64,000 nucleotides of DNA, from contig JAZLKX010000025.1 in the NCBI GenBank assembly GCA_045597865.1, forward strand, positions 352,001-416,000. The letters run 5' to 3'. The first letter of the stretch is position 1. Each line of letters opens with the position of its first letter. This DNA comes from Bacilli bacterium. Its GTDB lineage: Bacteria; Bacillota_I; Bacilli_A; RFN20; CAG-826. A model generated the notes under the pieces. It saw nothing but the letters and a program-made list of their open reading frames with translations, did no database searches and was not told the origin of the DNA. This document shows, one piece after another, positions 8,465 through 58,480 of this stretch. Made by a program: the position numbers and the translations under genes.

Positions 8465-9214
8465 CTAAAATAATTTTTCTTCATTAATTATCATTTTTTT
8501 ACTTAAAAGTAAAACGCCTAGATACATAACAACAAGTATCACTGGAATTATATTTCCAAGAAAATAAAAACCAATATTTGAAACGCTAGGTACAATCATT
8601 TCAAACAAAATAGAATTAATCACATTAAACAATAAGTGAAATACAGCACACATTTCTATTGAATTTGTTTTGATAAAAATAATTGCAAGCAAAACACCCA
8701 AAGCAAATGTGTAAACAGGAACAATCAAATCATATGGATTGAGTGTTGAAATAAATGTTGTTAGATGGCAAACTGCAAATAATCCTGCAGAAATTAATAT
8801 TTTCTTCCAATTTGAGCCTTCTTCAATATTGTTAATCAATAACAATCTAAAGATAAATTCTTCATTTAAAACAACAAATACTGTTAATAAGATTTTAAGT
8901 AACACTTCTGTAGTATAACTGATATTAATATCAGTTGGAACGAAAGCTAAATACATAAAATTAGATGCTACCACAATGATTGTTGGTGCTAAAATAAACA
9001 TCATTTTTAGATTTCTAGCCTTTAATTTAATGTCAAAATCTGTTTTAAATTTAACAACTAAAAACGAGCAAATCGAAAATAGAATTTGAACTCCAATTCT
9101 ACACCACAAACAAATAACGCTGGAATTACGAATAATGAGTTCAAAAGGAAAACATGCAAACGCTATGTAAAGCAGCATTAAGATTAAAAAATTGTAAATT
9201 CTATTTTTCTTCAT
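8465..9214 (-). CDS. CPBP-family (Rce1/Abi, CAAX-protease-like) intramembrane glutamic endopeptidase
   Basis: Multi-TM protein with EEFIFR, FAVCH and HLLFN, matching the EExxxR / FxxxH / HxxxN motifs. Overlaps the lgt stop. Confidence 0.88.
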   Translation of the reverse strand: MKKNRIYNFLILMLLYIAFACFPFELIIRNSSVICLWCRIGVQILFSICSFLVVKFKTDFDIKLKARNLKMMFILAPTIIVVASNFMYLAFVPTDINISYTTEVLLKILLTVFVVLNEEFIFRLLLINNIEEGSNWKKILISAGLFAVCHLTTFISTLNPYDLIVPVYTFALGVLLAIIFIKTNSIEMCAVFHLLFNVINSILFEMIVPSVSNIGFYFLGNIIPVILVVMYLGVLLLSKKMIINEEKLF

Positions 9215-9947
9215 TTGCTTTCTCGAAATATTTTTTTAATAAAAAATAAAGAGGAATACTAGCTACAAATAAAACAATACACCAAACTTGGCTTGGTGAT
9301 AAAGCAAAAGCAACTCCTCTTTCGTCTCCTCTAAAAAATTCAATTACAAATCTAAAAACTGCATAAGCTGGAATATAAATTAAGAATCCGTATTTGAATT
9401 TGTATTTCAATATTAGGAAAAGTAAAATTCCAAAAAGTACAAATAAAAATATGGACTCAATTAATTGAGTCGGTATTACTTTTCCAACTCCAGGAAATTC
9501 AATTCCGATCCAGCTATCTGTTGGTTTTCCATAGCAACATCCCGCTAAAAAACATCCAATTCTTCCAATGGCGTGCGCAAGCACGATTGAAGCAGGAGCA
9601 ATAATTAAAATATTGCCGAGGCGTAAAGTAGACTTTTTTCTTAAAATAAAGTACGTTCCTAAAAAACCACCTACACCACCAAACAAACCGCCATAGAAAG
9701 TCATTTTCCAAACCCATTTATATTGTTCTTTAAGTGAGATTGCTTCGTAAATGTTTTCAAATATAATTGAAAAAATAATGCCAAAAATTATTGCAAAACA
9801 TGCACAAATCCCTAAATCAATTAATGCAGATTTTTTCTCACCATTTTTCTTTAGAAAAATAACTGCAAGAAATACTGCAGCCAAAATTCCTATGCACATG
9901 CATACTATGTATGATCCATCGTTAATACCAAATAAGTTTGGATACAT
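9201..9947 (-). CDS. lgt: prolipoprotein diacylglyceryl transferase (Cys-rich GRIGCFLAGCCYG variant)
   Basis: FYGG, GRIGCFLAGCCYG, PTQLIES, YAVFRFVIEFFRGD, SQ motifs; about 7 TM. Confidence 0.88.
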   Translation of the reverse strand: MYPNLFGINDGSYIVCMCIGILAAVFLAVIFLKKNGEKKSALIDLGICACFAIIFGIIFSIIFENIYEAISLKEQYKWVWKMTFYGGLFGGVGGFLGTYFILRKKSTLRLGNILIIAPASIVLAHAIGRIGCFLAGCCYGKPTDSWIGIEFPGVGKVIPTQLIESIFLFVLFGILLFLILKYKFKYGFLIYIPAYAVFRFVIEFFRGDERGVAFALSPSQVWCIVLFVASIPLYFLLKKYFEKANEEK

Positions 9948-9969
9948 AATTAGGTCTCCGCTTTAATTC

Positions 9970-10929: not shown

Positions 10930-10934
10930 TTGAG

Positions 10935-12170: not shown

Positions 12171-12172
12171 AA

Positions 12173-13471: not shown

Positions 13472-13472
13472 A

Positions 13473-14291: not shown

Positions 14292-14317
14292 TTTGTATTC
14301 CTCTAATATTTGAAATA

Positions 14318-14326
14318 ATTATAACA
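14318..14326 (-). promoter_or_regulatory. extended -10 promoter of the rha operon
   Basis: TGTTATAAT about 27 nt upstream of the rhaD ATG, with a GAGGA RBS between them. Confidence 0.55.
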
Positions 14327-16389: not shown

Positions 16390-16391
16390 AA

Positions 16392-17096: not shown

Positions 17097-17098
17097 AA

Positions 17099-19914: not shown

Positions 19915-21163
19915 ATGGAGGTATTATGTAGTCATCTCCGTTTATGAATTTAGCATAGTCGATTGCAATTTGTTTTGGTTGACCGGCTAAATTTTTATCT
20001 GGATCATCTGGATTATAAAATAATCCAAAGTTATTTTCACCAACACTAACATTTTGATGAACTAGATTAGTTAATCTAAATACAAATACTGCTTCAACAA
20101 ATGGAAGATTTTCTTTAATAAGTTTTAAAGCATCAATTAAATATTTAGAATTGTCCGCTTTTGTAGTGTTTACGCCGTTGTCTGTCCAACCTAATTCACT
20201 ATAATAAACTGGTTTATCACCATCTCCGTGGTCAATAGCAACTTGGTAAATTTCTTTTTGATAGCCAACCCAATCACCTTTATTTGGATCAGGATTGCCT
20301 GTTGTAACACCTGGATATGGGTGCCAATTCAAAATATCAAAATAATTATCAGGATCTGTATCTGATTTTTCAGTACCATAAGGTAAAGTTTGTGATTCAA
20401 TACCTTGATAAATAAGTTCTAAGAAATGAGGACTACGATCAAGAAGACAAAGTGATATCATTGAACATTTGTTATCTTTGCTAGCTTTTTTAATGCCGCG
20501 TCTTGTGTAATAACAAATATCGCAAACTATGTTTGCCTTTTCATCATCAGTATATAAGAATGCTGCATTTTCTCTTTCAGTTAATCCATAACCATAGCCA
20601 TTTTTATGAATACAAGAAGATGCTTTCAAATCAGGTTCATTTCCTGGTTCAAAATACTTAATCATTGGGAAAAGTTCCGCAAACATTTGGCTGCCTTTTT
20701 CCATCAAATTTAAGAATATTTCATATTCTTCGTGTTCATTCGTTGGATCAGGAACGCAATATAATGTTGTTGGAGCGTATCCATATGGGAATAAGAAAGT
20801 TGTATACATTGCTAAAAAGTTAGTTACACCTTTTCCATCCCTATAAAGTTTATCAACGTGGTCTTTTAAAATTGTATAATAATGGTTGTTTAGCTTTAAA
20901 TCATTGTCTTCAGTAACGGTAAATAAAGCATTAATAGAAACCCAAAGTCTCATGGATTTGCATCCTAGAGCATTAACTCTATCGCCAATCCAATCATTTG
21001 TAATGGCGTAGTCAACACCATCATTTAAATCACCAGATGTTTCACATAATCCATAAAAATATGTGTAATCATAACTTCCTTTGTTTCCGCAAGAACCAAG
21101 CGAAACTAATGAGGTTGCAAGAAGTCCAAAAATAGATAAAGTACGTGTTAATTTATTTTTCAT
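19904..21163 (-). CDS. lipoprotein, clan GH-A glycoside hydrolase (GH39/GH5-like)
   Basis: Lipobox LGSC; EPGNEPD, NWHPY, YSELGW, GENNFG. Paralog of 18166..19914. Confidence 0.75.
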   Translation of the reverse strand: MKNKLTRTLSIFGLLATSLVSLGSCGNKGSYDYTYFYGLCETSGDLNDGVDYAITNDWIGDRVNALGCKSMRLWVSINALFTVTEDNDLKLNNHYYTILKDHVDKLYRDGKGVTNFLAMYTTFLFPYGYAPTTLYCVPDPTNEHEEYEIFLNLMEKGSQMFAELFPMIKYFEPGNEPDLKASSCIHKNGYGYGLTERENAAFLYTDDEKANIVCDICYYTRRGIKKASKDNKCSMISLCLLDRSPHFLELIYQGIESQTLPYGTEKSDTDPDNYFDILNWHPYPGVTTGNPDPNKGDWVGYQKEIYQVAIDHGDGDKPVYYSELGWTDNGVNTTKADNSKYLIDALKLIKENLPFVEAVFVFRLTNLVHQNVSVGENNFGLFYNPDDPDKNLAGQPKQIAIDYAKFINGDDYIIPPYEK

Positions 21164-31073: not shown

Positions 31074-34000
31074 TTAGTCTTGTTTTTTCTTAGCGGCAAT
31101 TAATGCAGCGCCAGCGATTGCTAAGCCTGTAACAACAGCGCTTGCAGCAATAACTGAACCACCACAGCCTTTCTTTGGTTCTGGTTGTGGTTCGAGTTTT
31201 GGAATAACCAAACTTTCTGCTGTGCATGCCATCTTATTTGCATCAAAGAGTTGACCGCATTCTGAACAGACATAATGTGCTTTCATTCCTTCTTTTTCAG
31301 TTGTAGCTGCAACTTCTGGAATTAATTCGCCAAGTTTATGTCCTGTTGCTGGGATAACTTCAGTCTTTGTTTCACCACATTCACAAGTGAATGTCTTGAC
31401 ACCATTTTCGGTACATGTTGCTGGTTTAGTAACTTCACCTTCACCCCATTCATGTCCTAATGCTGGATCAACAACTGGTGTTCTTGAAAGTTCTTTACCG
31501 CAGATTGAACAGTAGACAACTTCATCATGTGAACCTGCTTCTGTGCATGTTGGATTAACAACGTGTTCTTTAACAGCTGCTGCAGGTGTATGTGCAACAT
31601 CTTCTTTTGCAAGTTTTCCAGCAGCAAGTTTCCAAGATGCATAAGCATCTGCATCTCCAATTAATATGTTGCCTGCTACATCTTCAAAGTATTTTTCGCA
31701 TGTTTCACAGAAGTAAGCGGCTTTGTAGCCATCTTCCTTACATGTTGCATCTTTACCTGCAACTGGCGACATATCGTGTCCTAATGCTGGATCTGTAACT
31801 GTGTTTCTTGAAAGTTCTTTTTGACAAACTGAACAGTAGACAACTTCATCATGTGAACCTGCTTCTGTACATGTTGGATTAACAACGTTTTCAATAACAG
31901 CTGTTGCAGGTGTGTGTGGAACATCTTCTTTTGCAAGTTTTCCATCACCAAGTCTCCAAATTTCAAGAGCTTCGAAGTCACCAATTAAATCTTCACAATT
32001 CTCATCTTCGTAATAAGCCTTACAATTATTACAATAGTAAGCTTCTTTATAACCATCTTCTTTGCATGTTGCTGGTTCACCATCAATGAATTCAGCATCA
32101 TGTCCGATTGGATCAATATCAATGGTTTTTGTATCAGTACCAAGTGTTGCAAATGTTGCTGTGTATGTGCCAACACCTTTTTGAGTACATGTTGGATCAG
32201 TGGTTACTTCATAAGTAACAACACCTTCTTCAGTAACAAATTCTTCACAACCATCATTTGTGCATTCTTTAGTTGCAGTACATTCAAATCCACCGTCAAT
32301 TGGTTGCCAATCATAAACTGTTTCACCAAATACATGGTCTGGTTTACCAGCTTCAGTATTTGTGTAGCTATCCTTTTCAGTTTGAGCGGTTCCAAGTTCA
32401 GTATTATCAAATGTTACTTCAAAATGACCAGTTTCATAACTATGGCAAGTAGCATTTGTGTCTTTGACATAGTTTGCTTCTTTTTCTTCATATAAAGTTT
32501 CGCCACAGCCGTGTTCACAGGTTGCACTAGCTTTTGCAAGTTTGCCATCCCATGTAACTTCAACTGACCATTCGTGTCCAGTTGCTGGAGTATCTCCTTC
32601 AACTGAATTTGCCTCAGTGCGAGCTGTTCCGAGTGCTGTGTTATCAAATGTTACTTCGTAATGTCCTAAGTTTTTAGAAGTACATGTTGCTTCTGAATCT
32701 TGGACAAATGTGCCATCTTTGGTTTCTGTAATTTGGTGAGACCCATCATGGCTACAAGTCATTGTTGCAGTAGCAGTTTTGCCTTCCCAAGTAACAACTG
32801 GATCACCATAATCATGTCCAAGAGCATTGTTTAATGTAACATTTTCGGTTTGTGTTGCGAATTTTGTATTAGTAAATGTGTATGTGTAATGTCCTGTTTC
32901 GCCATCTTCACATGTAGCAGCACTATCTTGTGAGTATGAGCCTGTAGCAGTCTCAGTTGCAAGAACTTCGTCTTTATCAACACTGCAATATAATGTTGCA
33001 GTTATCTTATGATCTGCTGTTGGTTCACTATAAACGATTTCACCATCAGAGCAATCGGTAAATTTCGCATAGATTGATGTATCGGCATTAATTAATGTAT
33101 TTTCAAAATCAAATAAAGTCGCATATTCACCATCAGCATACCAACCACTAAAATGTGAATTTTCTTTAATTGGATCATCAATTGGAGAAACTTTAGTTCC
33201 AACATCTATGCTTACTTGAGTTTCAACACCGTTTGCGATAAATGTAACTGTTTTTTGTTCAACCCAATCAGCAACTAAAACAATGTCTTTAGTAACAGGA
33301 ACTCCGACAAATGTGTATGGATTACCATCCAATTTCCATCCATTAAATCTATATCCGGTTTTTGTCGGAACTACTGGCTCAGTAGCTGCCATATTTATTG
33401 CAACATATTGATCAGCAACAGAAGTGCCACCTTGAGAATCAAATGTTACTTTTGCTGCTTCTGTAAATGTTCCATTAACAAGTTCATTGTTAAAAGCAAT
33501 AAATTTAAGCTCTGGAAGGGTAGCATCCATGAATTGAGTATCTTTATCAATAGTAACAACGCTTCCTTGTTTTGCAAAACCAGGAGCATATAACGCTAAA
33601 AGATTGGTAGAAAAATAACTAATTAAAGAACCTTCAATGCTTGAAAAAGGAACTCCGTTAAGTTTGATGTGATTGCCTATTTCCTTGCTTGCAAGATTAT
33701 CTTTATGATTACCATCTATGTAATTTGAATTTTTACTAGCAAGATTAGATGTAAATCTTAACATTAAAACATTAGGGTCACCATCATATACTCCAGGCCA
33801 AAAATTAATGTAGTTATTATTTATTGCATCGTATGTTATCGGTCTCTTTCCGATTGACCAACCTCCATCATTATTCACAAAGTTACCAACATAATACAAA
33901 GTTGTAGGAGCAATTTTTGATTCAAAAAGAGTGGTATCTTCAGGAATAACAATCTCTAAGTACTTCAAGCCAGTTCTGGTTTCTATATCATCAAATGAAT

Positions 34001-34751
34001 TATAAGGGATGTAAATATAAGGCATATTAGCAAAGGAACCAACTAAAGCACCATCAATGTCAGCAAGTTTTACACCATTCGCTGTAACTTTATCAAAGAA
34101 ACTTGCAGATTTATCAATTAAAGTGTTAGAAACATTGCTTAAATTTCCACCAGAAACTGTAAAAAGAGCAATAGCCCCATTTGCTCCTGATGCCCATCCG
34201 CCATAATCAATGTTGTTCCAGGTTACACCTGAAATTTCAATTGTTTTTACTTTATCAGCAGGGTAATCAACACTTTTAAATACCAATCCTTTATTAGCAT
34301 CAAACACAAATTCCATTGTAGGAATGAGATAGTTTTGGAATTTAAAACCACCTGTAATTTTTAATGTTGATCCTTCAGTAATATTAGCCTGTGGAATATT
34401 AATAGAAAAATAAGTGCTACCGTTGCTATAATGAATTTTTGAACCTGTAATATTTTGTAATTCAACACCATCTAATTTAAAATAGCTACCTAATGTTGAC
34501 ACCAAATTTGTTTTGTCGATCGCATCTCCTAGAGTTTCGTTAAATTGAAGCAAATATGCATCGCTTTCAGGATATGGATTCCAAGCCGAAGCAATGCCTT
34601 TATAAGTTGCGTAAGGAGTTTGTTCTTCATCAACAGCTTTTGTCATCACTACTTCATTGCCTTTTGATAAAGCGACAGATATTGGAACACTAGCACCAAC
34701 TAATCCCAATGAAGTAAGGACTAATAATTTTGAATATACTTTCTTTTTCAT
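31074..34751 (-). CDS. large cell-surface protein: 3 novel beta domains, InlB B-repeats, Cys/His-rich repeats, KKGCGGS C-terminal sorting signal
   Basis: Signal peptide; AGGAGG RBS; VTFDSQGG...PTKTGYRFNGW B-repeat; ATC..G/CxxC repeats; C-terminal KKGCGGS-TM-KKK. Confidence 0.85.
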   Translation of the reverse strand: MKKKVYSKLLVLTSLGLVGASVPISVALSKGNEVVMTKAVDEEQTPYATYKGIASAWNPYPESDAYLLQFNETLGDAIDKTNLVSTLGSYFKLDGVELQNITGSKIHYSNGSTYFSINIPQANITEGSTLKITGGFKFQNYLIPTMEFVFDANKGLVFKSVDYPADKVKTIEISGVTWNNIDYGGWASGANGAIALFTVSGGNLSNVSNTLIDKSASFFDKVTANGVKLADIDGALVGSFANMPYIYIPYNSFDDIETRTGLKYLEIVIPEDTTLFESKIAPTTLYYVGNFVNNDGGWSIGKRPITYDAINNNYINFWPGVYDGDPNVLMLRFTSNLASKNSNYIDGNHKDNLASKEIGNHIKLNGVPFSSIEGSLISYFSTNLLALYAPGFAKQGSVVTIDKDTQFMDATLPELKFIAFNNELVNGTFTEAAKVTFDSQGGTSVADQYVAINMAATEPVVPTKTGYRFNGWKLDGNPYTFVGVPVTKDIVLVADWVEQKTVTFIANGVETQVSIDVGTKVSPIDDPIKENSHFSGWYADGEYATLFDFENTLINADTSIYAKFTDCSDGEIVYSEPTADHKITATLYCSVDKDEVLATETATGSYSQDSAATCEDGETGHYTYTFTNTKFATQTENVTLNNALGHDYGDPVVTWEGKTATATMTCSHDGSHQITETKDGTFVQDSEATCTSKNLGHYEVTFDNTALGTARTEANSVEGDTPATGHEWSVEVTWDGKLAKASATCEHGCGETLYEEKEANYVKDTNATCHSYETGHFEVTFDNTELGTAQTEKDSYTNTEAGKPDHVFGETVYDWQPIDGGFECTATKECTNDGCEEFVTEEGVVTYEVTTDPTCTQKGVGTYTATFATLGTDTKTIDIDPIGHDAEFIDGEPATCKEDGYKEAYYCNNCKAYYEDENCEDLIGDFEALEIWRLGDGKLAKEDVPHTPATAVIENVVNPTCTEAGSHDEVVYCSVCQKELSRNTVTDPALGHDMSPVAGKDATCKEDGYKAAYFCETCEKYFEDVAGNILIGDADAYASWKLAAGKLAKEDVAHTPAAAVKEHVVNPTCTEAGSHDEVVYCSICGKELSRTPVVDPALGHEWGEGEVTKPATCTENGVKTFTCECGETKTEVIPATGHKLGELIPEVAATTEKEGMKAHYVCSECGQLFDANKMACTAESLVIPKLEPQPEPKKGCGGSVIAASAVVTGLAIAGAALIAAKKKQD
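31455..32100 (-). repeat. intragenic tandem duplication, 324-nt (108-aa) unit, about 2 copies
   Basis: Near-identical GAACAGTAGACAACTTCATCATGTGAACCTGCTTCTGT at about 31507 and 31831; the protein repeats ATCKEDGYK...PTCTEAGSHDEVVYCS. Confidence 0.9.
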
Positions 34752-47655: not shown

Positions 47656-47676
47656 ATCAATTCCTCTTTTTAAATT

Positions 47677-50556
47677 TTACTCTATAACTTCAACCGGAAT
47701 AATAATCATTCTAATCTCGTTATTATAATAAGCACTTATTTTAAGTTGTGTTTTGCCTACTTTTGTTGGAGTAAAGGAATTGTCTTCATTTACTTTAAAG
47801 TATGCTGTGACAATTTGACTATCTCCAGATCCGGTAGGATGCTGTCTAGCAAAGTAAGCAATTTTTGCATCACATTCTTCGCCATTAAATAAAGCTTTAA
47901 CACCACTCATCACATAATTTTCACCCATCTTCATTGTAACTTTTTCAGGAGCTTCAATTTCAATAGCGTTATGTGTATAACCTTTTATGGTGTGCTCTAA
48001 ATATGAATCAGCAAACATATGACCTAAATCAATGTAGCATCCCGCATCATAGTGAGCAGTATCAATTAAACTACCGATTGGTTCAAATAAAGTTGTTAAT
48101 CTTTCATCAGTGCTAATATAAATATTATTTTCATCAACGCGTGATTTTTTAATGTCATTAATTTCGGCATCGTGATCCCACATGCCAGATGTTTCATAAA
48201 TACCAGCATCATACAGTTTAAATTTATAAGAAAGGTTGTCCTTAAATCTATTAGTAAAATCACTCATCAAATTATTGAATGAATTTAAATAAAGATTAGT
48301 TGATGTCTCAAAAACAGCATCTGATTCACCTTGCATCCACATAAATGCTTCAATCATTGGAATTGAATTATCCATTTCTGCAATAGCATCAATTGCTTTA
48401 GCAACTTCGCTTTCTAAAAGTCTATACATCCATCCTCTTGTAATTTCAAGTACTGGATCTAAGTCACGACGCCCAGTATTATCAAGACCAGGTTCAAGTT
48501 CATAATCCATTGAAGACGGGGAAAGGAAGTCAAAGTTTAAAGAAAGACCACCATATGCCACCTTAACAATGTATGTTGTTTCATCTGGGAATACCTTTGA
48601 CAAACGATCCGCTAAACCAATTTCAAAGCCAAATGTACCTGCAATGCCCATTGTCTCATAATATCTATCTGCATGTACTTTTTGAAAACCATCAATAAAT
48701 CTTGCTTGTGAATAACCAGTCATCAAGACATTGTCGTATCCGTTATTAATTTCATTAATCTTATCTTCATCAACTGTTTTTGGAAGGTATTCATAGTGTC
48801 CAACGCCTACTGCGTTAGATTGACCTGTCATAACAATAATTCGAGAATTTGCTTTCGGTTTATAGCCACTTATTGATTTATAAACAACATTAATTGAAAC
48901 ATCATCAGTTACAACAAGTGATTCAATTGGATTATATGAATCATCATAAACCTTAAATGTATAACCTTCTTTCTCAAAAATTGAGAAATCAAGCTCTTCT
49001 TCATAATCAACTTCAATTATATCTTCTGGTAAAGAAATACCTGAATATCTAACTGAAACTTTGCATTTTTCTTTAGAAATATAGTCTAAATACATATCAT
49101 TTTGAACTGTATCTACATCAAAATCCCAAAGTTTATCGCCATAATACCAAGCGCCATTTCCAACAGTGTGTGGATTATCAAGTTTTGTGCCTGGTTCAAC
49201 AAGTTTAATTACTGAAGATTCACCAAATTTTCTCATTGTGACTTTAGCTAATCCAGTAAGAGGATCATTGTTTATTTTTCCAGGCTTAAATCCAGTATCA
49301 ATGTTTCCAAGTAAAATCTTACGAATATTTTCACAATCTTCATGTGTCACACTAGTGTGATCGGTAAGATATTTTTCAACTTTTTCTGATAAATTACTAC
49401 CTTCATAATTTGTTTCAAAATAATTGAAATATGACATAAGTCTATTGTAGAAAACAACATTACCCTTTTCGTATCCACCAGTAACTGAATAAAGGGAAAG
49501 CATGAATTCTTTCAAAATCATCTCTTTATCTACACCACAAAGTGCATTTAAAACAAATGATAAGAATCCAGTTCTATCTCTTCCAACAGAACAATGGAAA
49601 TAAACAGGATAATTATCCTTATCGGCAAATACTTTCACTGCTTCGCCAAAGTTTGGAACTAAAGAATCTGGTCCAAAGTAATTAATAAATGTATTGTTAG
49701 TAGGATTATCATAGATATCGTTTGGAGATGGATAATGATAGTAATTTGGTAAATTTAAGAAGTTTTCTGTACCTTCGCCAACTAAACGTAAGTCAACTTC
49801 AGATTTAATTCCTAATTGATTCTTAAATTCATCCTCACCACTTTCGGTGATACCTTCAAGCTTATTTCCTCTATAGACAAGGCCTTCTTTCATTCTTTTG
49901 CTATTATGGCCAACTGAACCGCCAATGTCTCTAGTATTAGAAAGGCCAGAAACTTTAAGTGTTCTAGGAAGATTTGCGACTTCAAAGTTAAAAACATCAG
50001 AATATGCTTTAGATTCATCTTTTAATGTCGCGATTACTTGCCAATAATAATTGGTTGAAGTATATGGGTTATCTAAGATAACTGAGGTTGTATCACCACT
50101 TGTTTCATATTCTCTTTCTATATAAGAAAGATCAGAATCTTGCGAAATGATAACTTTATAGCTCTTTGCGTCTAAATCTGATGTCCATGATAAGACATTA
50201 TTAGTTGGTCTAAATGCATCATATTTTTCATATAAAGAGCGCATGTATTCATTATCATTATAGTGATTTGGGAAATTAGCAATTTCGTCATTATATGGCA
50301 TTAATTCGCCTATTTCAGTTGCTTTTTGCGGATAAGTATTGATTAAATCGTCCATTTCATAAAGCTTGCTAACAGCGTTTGGTAAAAATGAAACAGTTTC
50401 ACCAACACCTGGTTTAGAAGCTCTAATTGATGAAGTTAAATCTTTTGGCGTTCCAGTTTGAGTTGCCTTTAATGACATTACAGTAGTAGGAATAATTGCA
50501 GCAACTAAGCCGCAAGTTAATAAACTAATTCCAATAATAATATTTTTGTTTTTCAT
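47677..50556 (-). CDS. secreted PtpB/LipA-type cysteine phosphatase fused to a SASA (sialate O-acetylesterase/CE6-like) domain
   Basis: NTRDIGG, VYRG, DLR, HCSVGRDRTG; later GQSNA, WMQGESD, DTAHY. Confidence 0.85.
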   Translation of the reverse strand: MKNKNIIIGISLLTCGLVAAIIPTTVMSLKATQTGTPKDLTSSIRASKPGVGETVSFLPNAVSKLYEMDDLINTYPQKATEIGELMPYNDEIANFPNHYNDNEYMRSLYEKYDAFRPTNNVLSWTSDLDAKSYKVIISQDSDLSYIEREYETSGDTTSVILDNPYTSTNYYWQVIATLKDESKAYSDVFNFEVANLPRTLKVSGLSNTRDIGGSVGHNSKRMKEGLVYRGNKLEGITESGEDEFKNQLGIKSEVDLRLVGEGTENFLNLPNYYHYPSPNDIYDNPTNNTFINYFGPDSLVPNFGEAVKVFADKDNYPVYFHCSVGRDRTGFLSFVLNALCGVDKEMILKEFMLSLYSVTGGYEKGNVVFYNRLMSYFNYFETNYEGSNLSEKVEKYLTDHTSVTHEDCENIRKILLGNIDTGFKPGKINNDPLTGLAKVTMRKFGESSVIKLVEPGTKLDNPHTVGNGAWYYGDKLWDFDVDTVQNDMYLDYISKEKCKVSVRYSGISLPEDIIEVDYEEELDFSIFEKEGYTFKVYDDSYNPIESLVVTDDVSINVVYKSISGYKPKANSRIIVMTGQSNAVGVGHYEYLPKTVDEDKINEINNGYDNVLMTGYSQARFIDGFQKVHADRYYETMGIAGTFGFEIGLADRLSKVFPDETTYIVKVAYGGLSLNFDFLSPSSMDYELEPGLDNTGRRDLDPVLEITRGWMYRLLESEVAKAIDAIAEMDNSIPMIEAFMWMQGESDAVFETSTNLYLNSFNNLMSDFTNRFKDNLSYKFKLYDAGIYETSGMWDHDAEINDIKKSRVDENNIYISTDERLTTLFEPIGSLIDTAHYDAGCYIDLGHMFADSYLEHTIKGYTHNAIEIEAPEKVTMKMGENYVMSGVKALFNGEECDAKIAYFARQHPTGSGDSQIVTAYFKVNEDNSFTPTKVGKTQLKISAYYNNEIRMIIIPVEVIE

Positions 50557-50557
50557 A

Positions 50558-53500
50558 TTATTTTTCCTCCTTTCTTCTAACTAATATCAGCAAAGCTGAC
50601 AAGCATGCAGATATTGTTAAAACTAAAGAAGAAGCTAAAATGCTACTTCCACAACCTTTTTTCTCTTCAGGTTCTTCGTTTTTATATTTAATAACTAATT
50701 CAGCATAAGAAACTTCTTTATAAGTTTCCCCATCTTTAACAAAGTATTTATTACAATCATTACAAATGTAATGTTCTTTCATACCATCTTTATCTTTAGT
50801 TGCTTCGACTGCTCCAACATATGTGTAGCTATGAGCAAGTTTTGCAACACTTATTATCTTTGTTTGTTCATTGAAATATGGATTATCAAACGCAACAGAG
50901 TAAGCTATTTGACCTTCTTGAGTGCAAGATGCTTCACGAACAACAGTTTTTGTTGCAACTTTTGTTTCACTAATAACATCATCACAATTCACACAACGAA
51001 TAGAAGCAACACACTCAAATCCACCATCAATTTCTTTCCATTCATATGATGGACCGACATATTCGTGTCCATAAGCCTGAATCACAATTGTTTCTAACTT
51101 AAAGCTACAGGCTTCATCACCATAATAAACACCTGGTTCATTTGCACAGGTCCAGTATTCAGCGGTTCCATCTGTTTCACATGTTGCAGGAACTCCAGCG
51201 TGATGTGTTAAATCATGAGGAGTTTTTGGAATAGACCAATCATCAATTTCATTTAAACCTTCAGAATCACTAAAGTGTTTATGACAGTTTTCGCAGTAAT
51301 AGCATTCAACATTGCCAACTTCATAACATGTTGGATCTTTTGCATCTAAATGAACAATACTGTGATTTGATTTAGGAAGAACTACATCATCTGGATTAAG
51401 TAATTCTCTTCCTTTTGGGTCTGCAAAATAATAGTCACCAAAAATTGGTGAATAATAATAACCAATATTTCCATCTTCAGTACATGTTGCTTCTTTAGGT
51501 TCAACATAAACGTAAGTAATTGAATATTTAACAATAATTGTCACATCCGATGTTACTTCTAATGAATCGATTTTTTCGCCATCAAGATAAACTTCAAATG
51601 TTGTACCTTCAAATTCAAATATATCAAATGGTAAGAAATTGTTTTTCGAAACTAAGAATCTATCATCATCTCTTCTAATACCTTCATATTTTACAATTAC
51701 AGCATAATGAAGAGGGGCTTGTTTAAATTTAGCCTCAAAATGCATATCACCAGTAACGATTCCGGTTTCAAAATCCCATTTATAGCCTTCATAGTACCAA
51801 CCATCAAAGATGTAATCGTATTCTTCATCGTGATATGTACTTGGATTTGCAGGAGGAGTTAATTTACTGCCAACCGGTACTTCAACTGGATCTGCATCTC
51901 CAAAATAAATTTTTGCCATAGAAACATTACTATGAACGTTGATTGTGATTTCCTTAGTTTGAGTTGGATATCCTTCTAATTCATATGTAATAGTTAAATT
52001 CCATACGCCTGCATTATATTTTCCACCGCTAATTGCACCATCTTCATAGTCAAAAGTGATTTTTGATTCAATATCACCATATAAATTTGTTACTTTAGTA
52101 AGATTAGTAAAATCATAAACTGGATCACCTTCATTAAAGTCATATACTGAAATGCCTCCATAATAAATGGAAGGTTTATAAATTGGGAGATCCTTTTTGT
52201 AATCTAAAACACTATCTCCTTGGTCAACACCCCAGATAGCACATTTTCCAGTGCGGTCATTATTTAATTCATAATTAATAACAACTAGGTGATTAATTGC
52301 AATTATAACTGTTGTTTTTACACCACAAACAACTTTAAATTCAAATAAGTAATCAGTATTTGCTTCAAAAGTATAGTTATTGAAAGTTTGAAGAACAGCA
52401 TAGCTGTTTATTTGATCCAAAAGTGTAATGGATTGCCAACCAAATACAATTTGTGCTGTAAAACCATAAAAGCCATCTAATGTTAAAGTTGTTGGATTTG
52501 CTGGATCTACTGTTCCACTATTAATGTTGAACTCTAATTCAACTCCATCTGCAGGTAATTCTGCAAAGATAGCATGAGGTGTAGCTCCAACTTCATAAGG
52601 GAACTTAACCTGTAAATTTGTATTAAAATCAAATGGATCAGTTACTTTAAATGTTTCAAATGCACCACTTTTCCAAGTTGTTCCAGCAAGATAAAGATTT
52701 GTTTCTGGAAGCATGGTATCCATAAATATGGTATTTTCTTCAATATGAAGATTTGGAACTAAATGATCGTTTGTTGGAAGTAAAAGTTCAGCAGGATAAA
52801 CTACGAAAAAATGGTTAGCGCCATGATCGTAACCAACTTTTGTCTTTGGGAACTTATCATGGATTTCTGCAATTGTTAATCCATTAATTGTTAGTTTTGA
52901 ACCAATATCATATGCCAAAGTAGCTTGGTTATCAGAATTAGGAGTTTTATTGTCTGCCAAATAATCGATACCTTCTGTTCCATAATCAAGAATTGTATGG
53001 TAATAGCCAATTTCATTTGGAAGGTTGTTATTATAAGGATTTACTCCAGTGAATGGGAAATGATTATAATCACCAGCCCCTTTTTTAACGGACCATCCAC
53101 CACCTTTTCCTAATTTTCCTTTAAATTCAAAAGTGATTTCAGGAAGATTTACTGAATTAAAATGTAATCCTTTTTCAATTGTAATTGTTGGATATTGATA
53201 CTTGTCTTTATTAGAAAGAGATGTATCAGGTACGTAGAAAAATAATCCATATTTTGGGAAAAGATAACATTTAGAATCTGCCACATCAACTATGTTGACA
53301 CCATTAACTTTTATTAAATGGTCAACAGGATCACCATTGCCGATAAGACCTCTACCAGTATTAACCGTACTGCCAATTACAGTTTCTTCATATGATTTTC
53401 CAACTTCATGGAAGAATGAAAGTAAACAATATCCGTTAAGTGGAGCAGCATCATCTCCTAGTTCACCAGCCCACGCTTGAGACATTGTTGGGGAATAATC

Positions 53501-54100
53501 TCTATTATCCCACTCTATTTTATCAAATTCGCTTTCAACTCTAATAATTGGTTCAGGATCTTTTTGCCAGTTTCCAAAAGTTCCTAATGGTCCTCTATAT
53601 TCAAAGCTATTTCCTTCTACTTGATAGGTTCCATCTATTGACATGCCTTCAAGAACATCAATAGTGAGATAGTCATATTCTTCACCTAAGGTGATACTTG
53701 ATCTTGGAACATAAACATAAAATCCGTTTTGTGGATAGCCACACACAAAAACATCGGTCACTTCCGAGCAATTAATGCCATTAATTAAGATGTGATCTGT
53801 AACATTACAACCAGCGACGCCTGCAGTAATAAGGTTGACATCACTATAGGCTTTACTTGCTATATTCGAAGAATATAGAACCAAAATACAAAAACCTTGA
53901 GTAGGAACGCCACTTTCATTAAATGGACCAGGACCTAATCTAGCATAATCAACGTTATTCCACTCAACTTTTGCACCGCCAATTAAGTCAGTTGCCTGAG
54001 TTTCAAGTGGTTCACTTTTCTTATTGTTTGTTAAAACAAAAGAAGCTGAGAATGTCATTAATAATGACAATGCAATAGTAAGAATGTTTCTTTTTTTCAT
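50558..54100 (-). CDS. cell-surface protein: 3 novel domains, LamG-like, Ig-like, B-repeats, Cys/His-rich repeats, KKGCGSS C-terminal signal
   Basis: Signal peptide; WNNVDY and WDNRDY domains; ATCTEDG repeats; KKGCGSS-TM-RRK. Confidence 0.85.
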   Translation of the reverse strand: MKKRNILTIALSLLMTFSASFVLTNNKKSEPLETQATDLIGGAKVEWNNVDYARLGPGPFNESGVPTQGFCILVLYSSNIASKAYSDVNLITAGVAGCNVTDHILINGINCSEVTDVFVCGYPQNGFYVYVPRSSITLGEEYDYLTIDVLEGMSIDGTYQVEGNSFEYRGPLGTFGNWQKDPEPIIRVESEFDKIEWDNRDYSPTMSQAWAGELGDDAAPLNGYCLLSFFHEVGKSYEETVIGSTVNTGRGLIGNGDPVDHLIKVNGVNIVDVADSKCYLFPKYGLFFYVPDTSLSNKDKYQYPTITIEKGLHFNSVNLPEITFEFKGKLGKGGGWSVKKGAGDYNHFPFTGVNPYNNNLPNEIGYYHTILDYGTEGIDYLADNKTPNSDNQATLAYDIGSKLTINGLTIAEIHDKFPKTKVGYDHGANHFFVVYPAELLLPTNDHLVPNLHIEENTIFMDTMLPETNLYLAGTTWKSGAFETFKVTDPFDFNTNLQVKFPYEVGATPHAIFAELPADGVELEFNINSGTVDPANPTTLTLDGFYGFTAQIVFGWQSITLLDQINSYAVLQTFNNYTFEANTDYLFEFKVVCGVKTTVIIAINHLVVINYELNNDRTGKCAIWGVDQGDSVLDYKKDLPIYKPSIYYGGISVYDFNEGDPVYDFTNLTKVTNLYGDIESKITFDYEDGAISGGKYNAGVWNLTITYELEGYPTQTKEITINVHSNVSMAKIYFGDADPVEVPVGSKLTPPANPSTYHDEEYDYIFDGWYYEGYKWDFETGIVTGDMHFEAKFKQAPLHYAVIVKYEGIRRDDDRFLVSKNNFLPFDIFEFEGTTFEVYLDGEKIDSLEVTSDVTIIVKYSITYVYVEPKEATCTEDGNIGYYYSPIFGDYYFADPKGRELLNPDDVVLPKSNHSIVHLDAKDPTCYEVGNVECYYCENCHKHFSDSEGLNEIDDWSIPKTPHDLTHHAGVPATCETDGTAEYWTCANEPGVYYGDEACSFKLETIVIQAYGHEYVGPSYEWKEIDGGFECVASIRCVNCDDVISETKVATKTVVREASCTQEGQIAYSVAFDNPYFNEQTKIISVAKLAHSYTYVGAVEATKDKDGMKEHYICNDCNKYFVKDGETYKEVSYAELVIKYKNEEPEEKKGCGSSILASSLVLTISACLSALLILVRRKEEK

Positions 54101-54114
54101 ATGACCATTCTCCT

Positions 54115-55740
54115 TTATTTCTTCGTGTAAATAACATTGACGTAAGCATTTCTATTAACTTCGAGTCTAGTTATTTCTTTTCCTGTATCAGATAAAACGA
54201 GCATGTTGTAACCATCAACTTCATACGAAGTAAATTTCACAACATCACCGCTTTTAACATTTAAAACAACATCTTCTTTGTTTTGACCAATAAAGTGAAT
54301 TGTTACAAAGTATGATGAAACATAATCAGCATAAATATAAGTATTATCATTAATTGCATTAGCAAAGCTAAAGCTTCCGTCTTTTGTAAACCATCCAAGT
54401 CCGCTTGAAAGTTCATAAGGAGCAGGAATTATAGCGCCTTTATCAACAAACATTGAAGTATCTTTATGGCCAAGTGTTTTAACATTAACAAAGGCTTTTC
54501 CTTCATAGTTTAAGCTTGCTTTAAATGGTTTAACTTCATGTTCAACGTCAATTTTGCCAGACCAAATGTCTCTAATTTTTTGAATCTCTTCATCAGTTAA
54601 ACCAACATTTGATTCATCTTTTCTTAGGAAATTCTCTGCACCTGACATTAAAGAACTTCCAAATGATTCAATTAAATTGAGCGTTTCATTGACAGGAGCA
54701 AGATTTAAATCAGATAAACCTTTATCATAAGCTCCTGTAACAGACCACATAGAAGTAAAGTAATCATGAATAATATAATCTCTAGAAGCACCTGCTAAGG
54801 CTTGAAGAAGCATTGCTAGTGTTCCTGTTCTATCTCTACCGACAGCACAGTGGAATATAACTGGGTAATTGCTTGGTTCACAAAATACCTTAACTGCTTC
54901 AATCATGCTTTCTCTATTAATTTCGCTAAAACCAGGAGAATATTGAATAATTGTTCTTAAGTAATAATTAGGAAGTTTAGCAGGATTTTTAATTCCTTCA
55001 CCATTTTTTCTTAAGTCTAAATCAGTTTGAATTCCTAAATCATTTAATGCTGATACACCAATTTCGGTAACATCATCTAAACGACCACTTCTGTAGATTA
55101 AACCTTGTTTCATTTCACCAAGTGCGCCTGAAAAGCCACCAACATCGCGTGTATTTGAGACAGTTGGCACGTTAACAGTACGTTTAAAATCGTTTGTTTT
55201 AAAGTCAAAAATTGAAGATTTTACTTCACCATCGTTTGTATGTGCGGTCACTTGCCAGAAATAATGAGTATTAGAGTAAGGATTTTTTATTTCAAAGAAT
55301 TGTTCAGTTAATCCTTTTTCCTCATAAACTGCTTGTGTTAAATCAGCATTTAAGGAAACCGTCACATCATAACTTGTTGCTTTTACATTTGATTTCCATG
55401 TTAGAACGTTATTAGTTGGTTTAAAATCATCCCATTTATCGTATAACGCACGCACATAATCGTGATTATTAGCGTTATTTGCAAATGAAGAAATTTCATT
55501 ATTCATTTCGTATAGATTTTTAAGATTATCAATATCGTTTACGTTAGATTCCCAATATTTTTGAATATCAAGTTGAGCCATACTAATAACAGCACCATCT
55601 TTATGAGATAATGCTTGAATTTTTTCAACGTCAAGAACAATTGCTCCATCAGCAATGCATGTTTCAGCAGCGCGATTAAACCCTAGCGCTGTAAGTAAAA
55701 CTGAAGAAAAGACAACTGGAATTAAAATTTTCTTATTCAT
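54115..55740 (-). CDS. secreted PtpB/LipA-type cysteine phosphatase
   Basis: Start MNKKIL after GGAGG; NTRDVGG, IYRSG, DLR, HCAVGRDRTG. Paralog of the N-terminal half of 47677..50556. Confidence 0.87.
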   Translation of the reverse strand: MNKKILIPVVFSSVLLTALGFNRAAETCIADGAIVLDVEKIQALSHKDGAVISMAQLDIQKYWESNVNDIDNLKNLYEMNNEISSFANNANNHDYVRALYDKWDDFKPTNNVLTWKSNVKATSYDVTVSLNADLTQAVYEEKGLTEQFFEIKNPYSNTHYFWQVTAHTNDGEVKSSIFDFKTNDFKRTVNVPTVSNTRDVGGFSGALGEMKQGLIYRSGRLDDVTEIGVSALNDLGIQTDLDLRKNGEGIKNPAKLPNYYLRTIIQYSPGFSEINRESMIEAVKVFCEPSNYPVIFHCAVGRDRTGTLAMLLQALAGASRDYIIHDYFTSMWSVTGAYDKGLSDLNLAPVNETLNLIESFGSSLMSGAENFLRKDESNVGLTDEEIQKIRDIWSGKIDVEHEVKPFKASLNYEGKAFVNVKTLGHKDTSMFVDKGAIIPAPYELSSGLGWFTKDGSFSFANAINDNTYIYADYVSSYFVTIHFIGQNKEDVVLNVKSGDVVKFTSYEVDGYNMLVLSDTGKEITRLEVNRNAYVNVIYTKK

Positions 55741-58480
55741 GTTCTTTTCCTCCTTTCTTCTTTGAAGAAACAAGCAAGATAACTGCTACTCCCGAAAGTA
55801 AACTAACTATTAAGGATGCTGCAACAACACTTCCTCCACAACCCTTCTTTTCAGGATCAACTGGAGCGGTTGATTTATAAACAAGTTTTGCATTCATATT
55901 TCCAGTTACGGTAATAGAATTGACTTTTTCGTCATTAACATAGGCTTCAAGTGTATAACCATTTTTGTTAAATATTTCTATACTAAGGATTGAACCAGAA
56001 GCAAGATAAATGCTAAATGAACTAGAATCTTCTAATCCCTCTACTGTAAAAGAAACGCAATAAGTATTAATCTCATATTCAAATTTACTAACAAGGTTCA
56101 TATCTTGAACGATGTAGTCATTTTCAAAATCCCATGGTTTTTCATTGAAATACCATCCGATAAAATTATATTTTCCAACTTCGTCCTTTTTTACTGGATC
56201 AGCAATTGGAGCAATATGATCACCAATTTTGTAAATTGATGCATTTTTTTCATCAAATGTAACTGTTACTTCAAGTTTATTTGCAGCAATAACTGTAACG
56301 GTTAATTGAGTTTCATTACCTGACTTATCTTTAGATAAAATAACAACAGCCCATGTTCCTTTGTTAATTTTATTATCACTTAGAGAGCCTTCTGGCCATT
56401 TATATTCAATTAAATTAGAAACATCGCCATCTTTTAAGTCAAAAGCTGTGCATTTATTTGAAAAATCAATTACTTCACTACCAGCAAGTACGCCATAAAT
56501 AGCTTTACCACTATAGTTAAGTACTGGTTTTTTGATATCAGCTCCATAAGAAGCATTCTTTAAGGAAACGGTTCCATCTAATAAAGAAATTGAAAACTTA
56601 TTCTCGAGTTTAGAAATATCTTGTAAAGAAACGTCGTTAATGTGTATATAAACAATATCATCTATTGCTATCGCAATTGATAATTTATCATTATCTATTT
56701 TTGTATAAAACAAAATTGAAAACCATTCATCATAAATAAATGTAGGTAATTCAATTTCTTGTAATGTTACATTCATTTGGGTTGAATCAACTAAGCTTAA
56801 TATATTTCTTCTAAAGCTAACTTTAATTCCGTTTTGTGATTCATTTCCAAATGCAATTAAATCAAATGAGCTATCTTCATTTAAAAGTTTATAATCAAAA
56901 TATAAGTCAAAGTTACTAATTGAAGTATTATTGGTGCCACTAAGTTTTTTGTTGTTTTCATCAAGTGTGGCATTTTTTAGACCAAATACATCTTCAAATG
57001 AAACAGCATTGTCATACTCTTCATCTTCTGGTGTTTCAGGTCTTGTTTTAACCCATTCCCCATTGAATAGGTATAAGTCTGTTTCACCTAACATCGAATC
57101 GTAGAAGATTGTATCATTATCAATGTGAAGATTACACACTTTGTAACCAGGACTTGGTTTTAAAACTGAATTTGGCAAAACTATATAAATATAGCAATAT
57201 CCATGGGCATATGAAACGATTGCATCACCAATTTCAGCTAAAGAAACACCATTTACAAAAATGGATAAACCACAATATGAATATTTGCTGACAAGATTTG
57301 CATCTGCTGGTTCTTTATCATTTTTTAGATAATCAACACCATATTGACCAAATTGAAGAATTGTATGATTATGGGTGCTATTTAATGGAACATTGTTCCA
57401 ACCACCTGCAACATCAGTAAATTCAACATGGTTGTATTCAGATGGGTTTCTTAAGTAAGTCCAACGATCTGTTTCTCCTACCTCACCTCTAAATTCAAAA
57501 GAAATAGCAGGCAAAATTACATTATTAAAGTGAATTCCTTCTTCTAAAGTAATAACTGGGAATTTATATTCATCAGTAAAAGTTAATGAAGAATAAGGCA
57601 AATAGAAATAAAGACCATATTGTGGGAAAAGATAACATTTTGAATCAACAACATCAATAATATTGATGCCATTAACTTTTATCTTTGTATCAATTATTCC
57701 AAAACCAATAACGCCACGGCCTGAAACAGTAGCATCTCCAATAACGGTTTCTTCATATGTTTTTCCTTTTTCATTGAAGAAAACAAGCAAGCAATAGCCA
57801 TTAATTGGCGAACCATTAGCATTTAATTCACCGCTCCATTGTTGACCCATTGTGCTTGAATAGTCTTTGTTATTCCATTCGATTTTAGCAACATCAGCTT
57901 CTTTAAATTCGACTGGCTCAGGATTAATTTCCCAATTTCCAAAAGATTTAAGTAAACCTCTATATTCAAATCTAGTTCCAACAGTCATAGCACTTCCGTC
58001 AATTGACATTCCTTCTAAAACTTCAACTGTTAAATATGGATAATCATCACTAGTGGAAAAACTTGTAGCTGGAACGTAAAGGAAAAAACCATTTGTAGGA
58101 TAAGCATAGACAATAACATCATCTACATCCTTACATTCAACACCATTGATTAAAATATGATCACCAACATTGCAGCCTTCAATGGTTGCGTCTAATAAAT
58201 TTTCAGTAATGTATTCAGAAAGTGAAATATCAGATTTATAAAGTGGCAATAAACAATATCCTTCTTGAGGAATACCGTTTCCATCTCTATTTGCCACCCA
58301 TTGTTTGCCAAAATTTCCGGAATAGTCAACATTGTTCCAAGCAACTTGATCAATATCAACCAATTCTGTATCGTCAGCCTTTACATCTAAAGATTTATTT
58401 TTATTAAAATTTGCAACAAGACTTGCACAAACGCTTAAAAACATTGAGAGAATGAGAATTGAAATTCTTTTTTTGGCCAT
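55733..58480 (-). CDS. cell-surface protein paralogous to 50558..54100, with KKGCGGS C-terminal signal
   Basis: Signal peptide; WNNVDY, WNNKDY, WNNVP domains; DGDVS Ig-like; B-repeat; KKGCGGS-TM-KKK. Confidence 0.85.
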   Translation of the reverse strand: MAKKRISILILSMFLSVCASLVANFNKNKSLDVKADDTELVDIDQVAWNNVDYSGNFGKQWVANRDGNGIPQEGYCLLPLYKSDISLSEYITENLLDATIEGCNVGDHILINGVECKDVDDVIVYAYPTNGFFLYVPATSFSTSDDYPYLTVEVLEGMSIDGSAMTVGTRFEYRGLLKSFGNWEINPEPVEFKEADVAKIEWNNKDYSSTMGQQWSGELNANGSPINGYCLLVFFNEKGKTYEETVIGDATVSGRGVIGFGIIDTKIKVNGINIIDVVDSKCYLFPQYGLYFYLPYSSLTFTDEYKFPVITLEEGIHFNNVILPAISFEFRGEVGETDRWTYLRNPSEYNHVEFTDVAGGWNNVPLNSTHNHTILQFGQYGVDYLKNDKEPADANLVSKYSYCGLSIFVNGVSLAEIGDAIVSYAHGYCYIYIVLPNSVLKPSPGYKVCNLHIDNDTIFYDSMLGETDLYLFNGEWVKTRPETPEDEEYDNAVSFEDVFGLKNATLDENNKKLSGTNNTSISNFDLYFDYKLLNEDSSFDLIAFGNESQNGIKVSFRRNILSLVDSTQMNVTLQEIELPTFIYDEWFSILFYTKIDNDKLSIAIAIDDIVYIHINDVSLQDISKLENKFSISLLDGTVSLKNASYGADIKKPVLNYSGKAIYGVLAGSEVIDFSNKCTAFDLKDGDVSNLIEYKWPEGSLSDNKINKGTWAVVILSKDKSGNETQLTVTVIAANKLEVTVTFDEKNASIYKIGDHIAPIADPVKKDEVGKYNFIGWYFNEKPWDFENDYIVQDMNLVSKFEYEINTYCVSFTVEGLEDSSSFSIYLASGSILSIEIFNKNGYTLEAYVNDEKVNSITVTGNMNAKLVYKSTAPVDPEKKGCGGSVVAASLIVSLLSGVAVILLVSSKKKGGKEHE

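Follow-up and report, generated by a model that had tools for sequence, protein, structure and literature searches.

The locus described here raises the question of why three large secreted proteins of a gut bacterium end in the same short, cysteine-containing tail, and which enzymes would act on it. The window, meaning the whole stretch of 64,000 nucleotides that was analysed (G000:C25:352001-416000), belongs to the source genome G000, a 1.74-Mb assembly of 58 contigs that is 96.9% complete; the lineage is one that we take to be the gut group called RF39. Besides the three tail proteins, the window encodes a paralogue of the transferase Lgt and, next to it, a CPBP/Rce1-like intramembrane glutamic protease. 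We think it probable that these elements constitute a tripartite C-terminal sorting system of the Cys type that has had no name so far, in a lineage of gut Bacilli with small genomes and probably no cell wall, and that in this system the Lgt paralogue would lipidate the cysteine of the tail and the CPBP protease would remove the adjoining helix. An earlier note on this DNA had read tail and gene pair as a candidate new Cys-type system, and the sequence comparisons reported below support that reading.

All three tail proteins are encoded on the minus strand and start with a signal-peptide-like segment, basic and hydrophobic, without a lipobox cysteine. The first (31074..34751) has 1225 residues with Listeria-Bacteroides repeats and Cys-rich repeats and ends in EPKKGCGGSVIAAS; its tail consists of KKGCGGSVIAAS, a transmembrane helix and KKKQD (about 31077-31175) and matches the tail model described below with an E-value of 2.7e-18. 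The second (50558..54100), 1180 residues long and without a Pfam domain, ends in EEKKGCGSSILASS, where KKGCGSSILASS is followed by the helix and RRKEEK (about 50561-50662; E 2.7e-17). The third (55733..58480) has 915 residues, likewise no Pfam domain, and ends in PEKKGCGGSVVAAS, with KKGCGGSVVAAS, the helix and KKKGGKEHE (about 55736-55849; E 1.4e-15). In each open reading frame the layout is the one that the earlier note had described: a Pro/Glu linker and KKGCG[GS]S[VI][IVL]A[AS]S, then a stretch of some 20 hydrophobic residues and an end rich in K/R. This tail is a real feature and not a product of chance. Its core, GC[GK][GS][SN], occurs six times in the 898,575 residues of all stop-to-stop open reading frames of G000; three of these six occurrences are the window tails, located 31-36 residues before the stop, where about 0.03 would be expected by composition, and two of the other three are ordinary N-terminal lipoboxes. 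Interleaved with the tail proteins are two secreted Y_phosphatase3 proteins (54115-55773 and 47677-50556), one of which also has a SASA acetylesterase domain; the frame 54115-55773 begins, at its annotated TTG, inside the tail-coding end of 55733-58480.

A first tail model, made from the three window tails, matched strongly in three further genomes from the genus and was rebuilt from 13 tails (alignment A2), in whose unselected rows G, C and S are invariant. The 42 distinct tails from the window and its relatives share the consensus [KN][KN]-G-C-[GK]-G-[SN]-[IV]-x-[AT]-x-S, three positions of which are fixed by the pattern GC.G with which these tails were picked, and in 21 of the 42 the first basic residue stands 25 positions after the cysteine. 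The cysteine is invariant in A2 and in every tail inspected in relatives, and a short signature precedes a transmembrane helix, with a basic cluster closing the chain. The listed tail-positive genomes carry 1-10 tails each, on unrelated proteins. In 10 tail proteins from other genomes, the C-terminal pieces contained GDPD, CBM_X2, BspA-LRR with Flg_new, Flg_new_2, Big_3, phytase-like and Endonuclease_1 with Big_2 domains, and two of the ten pieces had no Pfam match. Such modularity on unrelated proteins is a hallmark of a sorting signal.

The signal also lies outside the C-terminal (CTERM) families that have already been named, as the earlier note had presumed. Neither the whole proteins nor the three tails by themselves (E<=10) nor 13 tails from four genomes (E<=10) matched a CTERM family in NCBIfam 20.0, and this rules out the named families, including the MYXO-, JDVT-, Synerg- and CGP-CTERM models, as the identity of the tail. 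Below the cut-offs, the matches were confined to the hydrophobic segment of LPXTG/NPXTG anchors (9 of the 13 tails matched LPXTG_anchor, best E 0.015).

The surroundings of the cysteine resemble a known lipidation motif. Read from the membrane towards the cysteine, the tail runs I/V, S/N, G, G/K, C, and then G and K/N. A simple pattern scan of G000 gave 56 candidate classical N-terminal lipoproteins, whose lipobox reads in order L, A/S/T, G/S, C and then G; L is found in 46 of the 56, [AST] in 50, [GS] in 52 and the following G in 29, figures that are to be read with the fact that the search pattern itself constrains positions -3 to -1. By this comparison the tail is a near mirror image of the genome's own lipobox with one extra small residue. 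The term "mirror-image lipobox" used in the earlier note is a fair description, with small residues (G, G/K, S) and then I/V on the membrane side of the tail cysteine, and L-[AST]-[GS] before the cysteine of the 56 lipoproteins.

The gene pair lies at positions 8465-9947 of the window. The Lgt paralogue (9201..9947, minus strand; 248 residues; PF01790 with 115.2 bits, cut-off 24.9), a member of the "GRIGCFLxGCCYG" subfamily, is the proposed lipid transferase acting on the tail cysteine, and the CPBP/Rce1-like intramembrane glutamic protease (8465..9214, minus strand; 249 residues; PF02517 with 59.1 bits, cut-off 22.4) is the proposed tail-cleaving enzyme. The start of the CPBP gene overlaps the stop of the lgt paralogue, the frames sharing 14 nucleotides, and the motifs EExxxR, FxxxH and HxxxN are intact, so that the earlier description of an Lgt gene overlapping an intact CPBP gene holds. 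Residues E118, E119, R123, F146, H150, H193 and N197 of the protease are invariant across 10 CPBP orthologues, and orthologues of the Lgt paralogue that are adjacent to CPBP in relatives have 45-58% identity. The paralogue is not the sole lgt of the genome: a canonical lgt with the motif GRWGNFFNQE is present on contig C28, with uvrA-like, HAD-like and thioredoxin-reductase-like frames as neighbours, and there is one copy of LspA.

As judged from NCBIfam, the CPBP orthologues give weak matches below the cut-offs to MrtS (10/10), ABC_perm_CPBP (9/10), MrtJ (9/10) and Mrt_core (4/10). Among the NCBIfam matches of the window protein at E<=1, no Lns-named model was found. Searches of PDB sequences returned nothing for the single CPBP sequence and nothing for the CPBP profile at E<=10. 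A second CPBP protein of G000, encoded outside the window (G000:C25:1344-1628), has an N-terminal CxxC...CxxC zinc-ribbon, and in G000, G080 and G220 a conserved multi-pass membrane frame of about 300 residues, the same one in all three, comes after the zinc-ribbon CPBP. It looks like a housekeeping gene, because it is found in genomes without the Lgt-CPBP pair.

The link between tail and pair, which the earlier note had called circumstantial, became strong when the tail model was profiled against the CPBP type and the Lgt subfamily. Among the 37 genomes of the genus sample (G000 included), the tail occurs in G000, G004, G013, G018 and G042, the CPBP protease in exactly those five, and the Lgt paralogue in those five and G048; both genes are adjacent in all five. 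In G048, an assembly that is 45% complete, the tail was not found; its close orthologue of the Lgt paralogue (G048:C2:27469-28218) is flanked by a tyrosine-phosphatase-like and an unrelated frame, with no CPBP.

The family sample comprised 401 genomes, searched with the tail model (E<=1e-4), the CPBP profile A4 from 10 sequences (E<=1e-10) and the Lgt profile A3 (E<=1e-20). The tail was found in 107 of them, the CPBP protease in 132, the Lgt paralogue in 126 and both genes in 110. Tails are present in 99 of the 110 genomes with both genes (94 with the genes adjacent, 5 with them on separate contigs) as opposed to 8 of the 291 that miss one or both; no tail was found in the 22 genomes with CPBP only, and one in the 16 with Lgt only, that one being 63% complete. 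Viewed from the tail, 99 of the 107 positive genomes carry the CPBP/Lgt clade, as the earlier note had expected, and 261 of the 401 genomes have neither tail nor CPBP. The two genes are adjacent (<3 kb, same contig) in 102 of the 110 genomes, and this adjacency takes four layouts, namely Lgt>CPBP in 55, CPBP>Lgt in 28, divergent in 15 and convergent in 4. Within genera the features are patchily distributed, and it is one and the same set of genomes that is triple-positive: with G000 excluded, tail, CPBP and Lgt were found in 4/36, 4/36 and 5/36 genomes of genus g1, in 5/53, 7/53 and 6/53 of g40 (triple-positive being G369, G378, G384, G393 and G399) and in 8/8 each of g33, and about twenty genera gave zero for all three features. 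Eight genomes have the adjacent pair without a tail; five of these were re-searched, and three proved to have one sub-threshold tail, GC[RA]GS[IV]YGS followed by a helix and RKK, on an Endonuclease_1 and Big_2 protein about 9 kb from the pair. Tails lie on the same contig at about 4-25 kb from the pair in at least 12 genomes, which is not clearly above chance with several tails per genome of 1-2 Mb.

Beyond the family, a 251-genome draw from the 8 families of the order revealed the CPBP type in five of them (f1 28/114, f2 3/11, f3 29/67, f7 5/31, f8 4/12) and not in f4 (0/2), f5 (0/12) or f6 (0/1). Five positive genomes outside f1 were tested. Four of them (f3, f3, f7 and f8) have the Lgt paralogue directly adjacent to CPBP and carry 4, 2, 1 and 7 tails, respectively, and the fifth (f2) gave a weak CPBP match, no Lgt paralogue and no tail. 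The triad of tail, Lgt paralogue and CPBP recurs in three further families of the order besides the home family.

The "GCFLxGCCY" Lgt subfamily itself is very widespread, with at least 600 stretches (one genome per species), including Lachnospiraceae, Clostridium, Akkermansia, Elusimicrobia and Kiritimatiellae. Of its best 80 loci, only the 8 closest (43-53% identity) and none of the 72 more distant ones have the CPBP type described here within 10 kb. These eight loci are from metagenome-assembled genomes titled Bacilli, Bacillales or Candidatus Enteromonas, with the CPBP gene downstream, upstream or on the opposite strand. Tails are present in seven of the eight genomes, and a ninth, in which the Lgt gene is at a contig end, has 4; no tails were found in six genomes with the Lgt subfamily and no adjacent CPBP. 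Some of these genomes also belong to the family and order draws (identical coordinates) and do not add independent cases. Judged by these profiles, a functional link of the tail, the Lgt paralogue and the CPBP protease is very likely.

What the Lgt paralogue might do in such a link can be approached by comparison with the enzyme of Escherichia coli. The paralogue scores far below the NCBIfam equivalog cut-offs for lgt (TIGR00544 / NF000778, 52.8 vs 118.9 bits and 116.7 vs 334 bits). A search of PDB sequences with the single paralogue sequence found nothing, and the Lgt profile A3, built from 6 sequences, reached E. coli Lgt 5AZB, to which it was aligned (chain numbers are one above the published numbering). 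In this alignment, GRIGCFLAGCCYG of the paralogue pairs with E. coli G142-RLGNFINGELWG-154, FYGG(L) with F-H103-GG, IPTQLIE with H196-PSQLYE, and YxxFRFxxEFFR with Y235-GAF-R239-IIV-E243-FF-R246, so that the paralogue lacks both the signature motif and the HGGL motif of canonical Lgt. Positions R143, G154, E202, Y235, R239, E243 and R246 are kept, and Y26 is a tyrosine in 5 of the 6 orthologues; H103 is changed to Y, N146 to C and E151 to C. R129, R199, E203 and R206 of the paralogue are invariant in the 6 orthologues, as are three cysteines within its signature motif, and the head domain between the signature and PTQL motifs has about 15 residues in the paralogue versus about 38 in E. coli Lgt. 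According to Mao et al. 2016, the E. coli enzyme does not tolerate mutation of R143, R239, E243 or R246 and is inactive as H103Y or E151A/Q; a role in peptide binding was proposed for the HGGL motif with H103, the phosphatidylglycerol head group is bound by E151, and the active site works at the outer membrane surface. The paralogue thus keeps the catalytic core and changes exactly the proposed substrate-recognition positions, a pattern that fits a different acceptor geometry and perhaps a different donor and that equally marks it as no standard Lgt. The stretch GCFLAGCCYGKxTD (A3 positions 132-146) gave a chance-level match (E 0.81) to the active-site stretch CCFVHDCCYGKATD of snake phospholipase A2 (1PP2); this likeness is probably a coincidence, and the His-Asp is missing in the paralogue.

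Because the tail resembles a mirror-image lipobox whose cysteine would lie at the outer surface, export, lipid transfer and CPBP cleavage would be the most likely route. The comparisons above establish the signal with its modularity, the conserved gene pair and the co-occurrence of all three parts, whereas for the route we infer the transfer of a lipid, the donor, the sequence of events and the site of cleavage. The substrates would be exported via their N-terminal signal peptide, after which the C-terminal helix would keep them in the membrane, the basic end of the tail facing the cytoplasm and the G-C-[GK]-G-[SN]-[IV] motif lying on the outer face. The cysteine, two or three residues before the helix, would thereby be placed at the outer surface, where the active site of Lgt works. 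The paralogue would transfer a lipid, most simply diacylglycerol from a phospholipid, onto this invariant cysteine, reading a lipobox-like motif with the chain direction reversed relative to ordinary lipoproteins. The CPBP protease would then remove the helix and the basic tail, leaving the protein anchored by a C-terminal lipid-modified cysteine. Removal of the helix after lipidation is the most likely order by analogy with Rce1, which depends on a prenyl-Cys, and with the MYXO-CTERM model.

The alternative that survives best accepts the cleavage by CPBP and assigns another role to the paralogue: a lipid could be attached to the new C-terminus or another residue, or the enzyme could be preparing a lipid carrier or modifying the protease or some other membrane component. 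The co-occurrence data are silent on which residue is modified, the paralogue is without H103 and E151, two residues that E. coli Lgt cannot do without, and its three invariant signature-motif cysteines make a different chemistry conceivable. On the other hand, the sole invariant and chemically special residue of the tail is a cysteine at the membrane surface, the known acceptor type of Lgt enzymes, the motif around it mirrors the genome's own lipobox, and the catalytic Arg/Glu/Tyr network has been retained in the paralogue. We regard this alternative as unlikely, and it is still the strongest competitor to lipidation of the tail cysteine by the paralogue.

Several observations weigh against the proposed system of cysteine lipidation and CPBP cleavage. 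Seven tail-positive genomes of the family have neither gene. Of these, G080 is 95% complete, carries 8 good tails and has only the housekeeping lgt and the zinc-ribbon CPBP; G220, also 95% complete, has a tail and no pair; G225 has a weak tail match; and the remaining ones are 70-83% complete. A lenient re-search of five of the seven found only canonical lgt and the zinc-ribbon CPBP, so that in these genomes either the pair is in unassembled sequence or the housekeeping enzymes suffice. The CPBP match in G139, a genome with 10 tails, is split and has six stops in one of its frames, possibly because of a frameshift or a misassembly. Because related genomes do not count as independent, the co-occurrence counts overstate the number of independent events, and the Fisher value calculated for the family sample is not to be taken as a probability. 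In the window itself, the distance from the pair to the nearest tail was measured as 21.9 kb, in line with the more than 20 kb given in the earlier note. Among 27 longer homologues of the paralogue no fusion carrying PF02517 was found, which is weak evidence in this search mode. The CPBP protease stays below the myxosortase cut-offs (MrtS 20.5 vs 130 bits, Mrt_core (NF040914) 13 vs 100, MrtC 10 vs 195). Our own reading of its hydropathy and of the positive-inside rule suggests eight helices with the N-terminus inside and puts the EE motif within helix 4, in its inner half; as the motif would lie towards the inner side and the cysteine at the outer surface, the cut need not fall right at the cysteine. 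Finally, since H103Y and E151A/Q are inactive in E. coli, the mechanism of the paralogue must deviate in some respect from that of canonical Lgt, perhaps through a different donor or chemistry.

In a second alternative the tail would be a mere membrane anchor, with its cysteine engaged for example in a disulfide, and the pair would serve N-terminal lipoproteins, an Lns-like acylation or a bacteriocin-type CPBP role, the co-occurrence being due to common ancestry. Indeed, numerous other large surface proteins of G000 end in a plain C-terminal helix with KKK or RKK and no Cys motif (for example the 898-residue open reading frame 21153-23849 on the minus strand), and the CPBP protein LnsB reportedly takes part in lipoprotein N-acylation in Staphylococcus aureus; the kinship of the genomes and the pairless tails of G080 point the same way. 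Ancestry does not easily explain, however, that the same genomes are triple-positive inside patchy genera (5/37 in g1, G000 included, and the five of g40), that the triad recurs in four families, that tails almost never occur with one gene type alone, or that adjacency survives four rearranged layouts, and a mere anchor does not account for the modularity of the tail on unrelated proteins. We therefore consider this explanation improbable. As the other large proteins end in a motif-free helix with KKK, the Cys-tail proteins form a distinct subset, and this cell anchors proteins in at least three ways: by a lipid at the N-terminus, by a plain helix at the C-terminus and by the Cys tail.

An equally improbable explanation is that the housekeeping Lgt, the zinc-ribbon CPBP or both process the tails, with the dedicated pair as an accessory or specificity factor. 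G080 and G220, which have tails and only these housekeeping genes detectable, speak for it, as does the finding in the myxosortase literature that MrtX could process a MYXO-CTERM in E. coli, a host with no Lgt other than its own. Canonical lgt and the zinc-ribbon CPBP are, however, present in all three genomes checked (G000, G080 and G220), and yet only 8 of the 291 family genomes missing the paralogue, the CPBP protease or both have tails. Sortase-type anchoring of the tail proteins, lastly, is ruled out by the lack of any match to the sortase domain PF04203 anywhere in G000 and of any LPxTG-type C-terminal signal in its open reading frames of at least 150 residues, so that what the earlier note had stated for the window holds for the whole genome.

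Other features of the locus and of the genome are in part informative for the setting of the proposed system. The pair is located inside a same-strand sugar-catabolic run, with aldose 1-epimerase, RhaA, FGGY kinase and class II aldolase genes upstream and esterase, APH-type kinase and amidohydrolase genes downstream. A complex prediction for the Lgt paralogue and the CPBP protease (alignments A3 and A4) gave a score of zero in both runs, made without controls, and says nothing either way. Seven of the longer homologues of the paralogue were read and have low-complexity or other membrane extensions. A different pairing of an Lgt-like domain and a protease is seen in P0013-P0018 and P0024 (782-785 residues), where the LGT domain is joined to a gingipain-type Peptidase_C25, and signal peptidase II is the partner of LGT in the longer homologue P0011. 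G000 likewise yielded no penicillin-binding transpeptidase domain, although absence from an assembly that is 97% complete is not proof. Since neither this domain nor a sortase was detected, the host is probably a wall-less, Mollicutes-like cell. The large contigs of G000 have a G+C content of about 34% (31-39%), whereas eight contigs of 1.0-1.8 kb (C2, C14, C30, C31, C42, C45, C50 and C58) have 59-66%; these are probably contamination of the bin, for which a contamination of 5.4% is reported.

A Cys-type C-terminal signal with a CPBP protease is a known kind of system, and the dedicated Lgt-family partner is the added element. The Haft 2023 preprint linked four Cys-containing signals to CPBP proteases, and a 2025 mBio paper from the Wall lab reports that MrtX is needed for cleavage. 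The system proposed here resembles MYXO-CTERM/MrtX and the JDVT-, Synerg- and CGP-CTERM systems in its tripartite signal of invariant cysteine, helix and basic cluster, in the presence of this signal on many unrelated secreted proteins, in its co-occurrence with a CPBP/Rce1-type glutamic intramembrane protease, and in the route of Cys lipidation and then cleavage that is proposed in both cases. It differs in the tail, which is G-C-[GK]-G-[SN]-[IV] and Lys-rich rather than Arg-rich and is matched by none of the four models, in a CPBP protease below all Mrt cut-offs, and in the host, a monoderm without detected sortase or penicillin-binding protein and thus without an outer membrane or a type II secretion step. 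The main difference is the dedicated Lgt paralogue encoded beside the protease.

With canonical Lgt and LspA the proposed system shares an Lgt-family transferase with the R143/R239/E243/R246/Y235 core, an outer-surface cysteine flanked by small residues and then an aliphatic residue, and an intramembrane protease that would next remove the adjoining helix. In contrast to that pathway, the signal is C-terminal with the chain direction reversed, the transferase has GRIGCFLxGCCYG instead of GRxGNFxNxE, YGGL instead of HGGL and a much shorter head domain, and the partner is a CPBP glutamic protease and not the aspartic LspA, normal lgt and lsp genes being present elsewhere in the genome. An analogy drawn in the myxosortase papers also applies, namely that to the CAAX processing of eukaryotes and archaea, in which one enzyme (a prenyltransferase) lipidates a cysteine of the C-terminal region and a CPBP-family protease (Rce1) removes the rest; here, however, the signal is long and includes a helix, the event would take place outside the cytoplasm, and the candidate transferase is of the Lgt family and not a prenyltransferase.

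The myxosortase papers state that the enzyme modifying the cysteine of MYXO-CTERM-type signals is unknown and name Lgt as the leading candidate, and the main text of the Haft 2023 preprint mentions neither Lgt nor diacylglyceryl, nor Firmicutes or Bacillota. Full-text searches, in which subscription journals were not covered, found no paper on an Lgt paralogue paired with a CPBP protease and a Cys tail. The Lgt guess is hard to test in myxobacteria, because Lgt is a single essential housekeeping gene there. The candidate described here is a separate, non-housekeeping Lgt paralogue that is a neighbour of the protease and whose presence follows that of the signal over hundreds of genomes, and the three-gene system of tail reporter, lgt paralogue and CPBP could be rebuilt in a laboratory host. 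Whether the missing lipid transferases of Cys-type C-terminal signals generally belong to the Lgt family, with a specialised paralogue that would read the lipobox backwards and give a C-terminal S-diacylglyceryl-Cys, we see as an evenly balanced matter.

If the proposed route is true, the C-terminal S-diacylglyceryl-Cys would be a protein-lipid linkage that has not so far been reported from bacteria, a mirror image of what is found in Braun-type lipoproteins. It would also propose a function for part of the large "GCFLxGCCYG" branch of Lgt, which has so far been unexplained. For the abundant, uncultured gut bacteria that carry it, the tail would be a new sorting signal and would improve the annotation of their surface enzymes and adhesins, and in a bacterium without detected sortase or penicillin-binding protein this system would be a main way of displaying surface enzymes.

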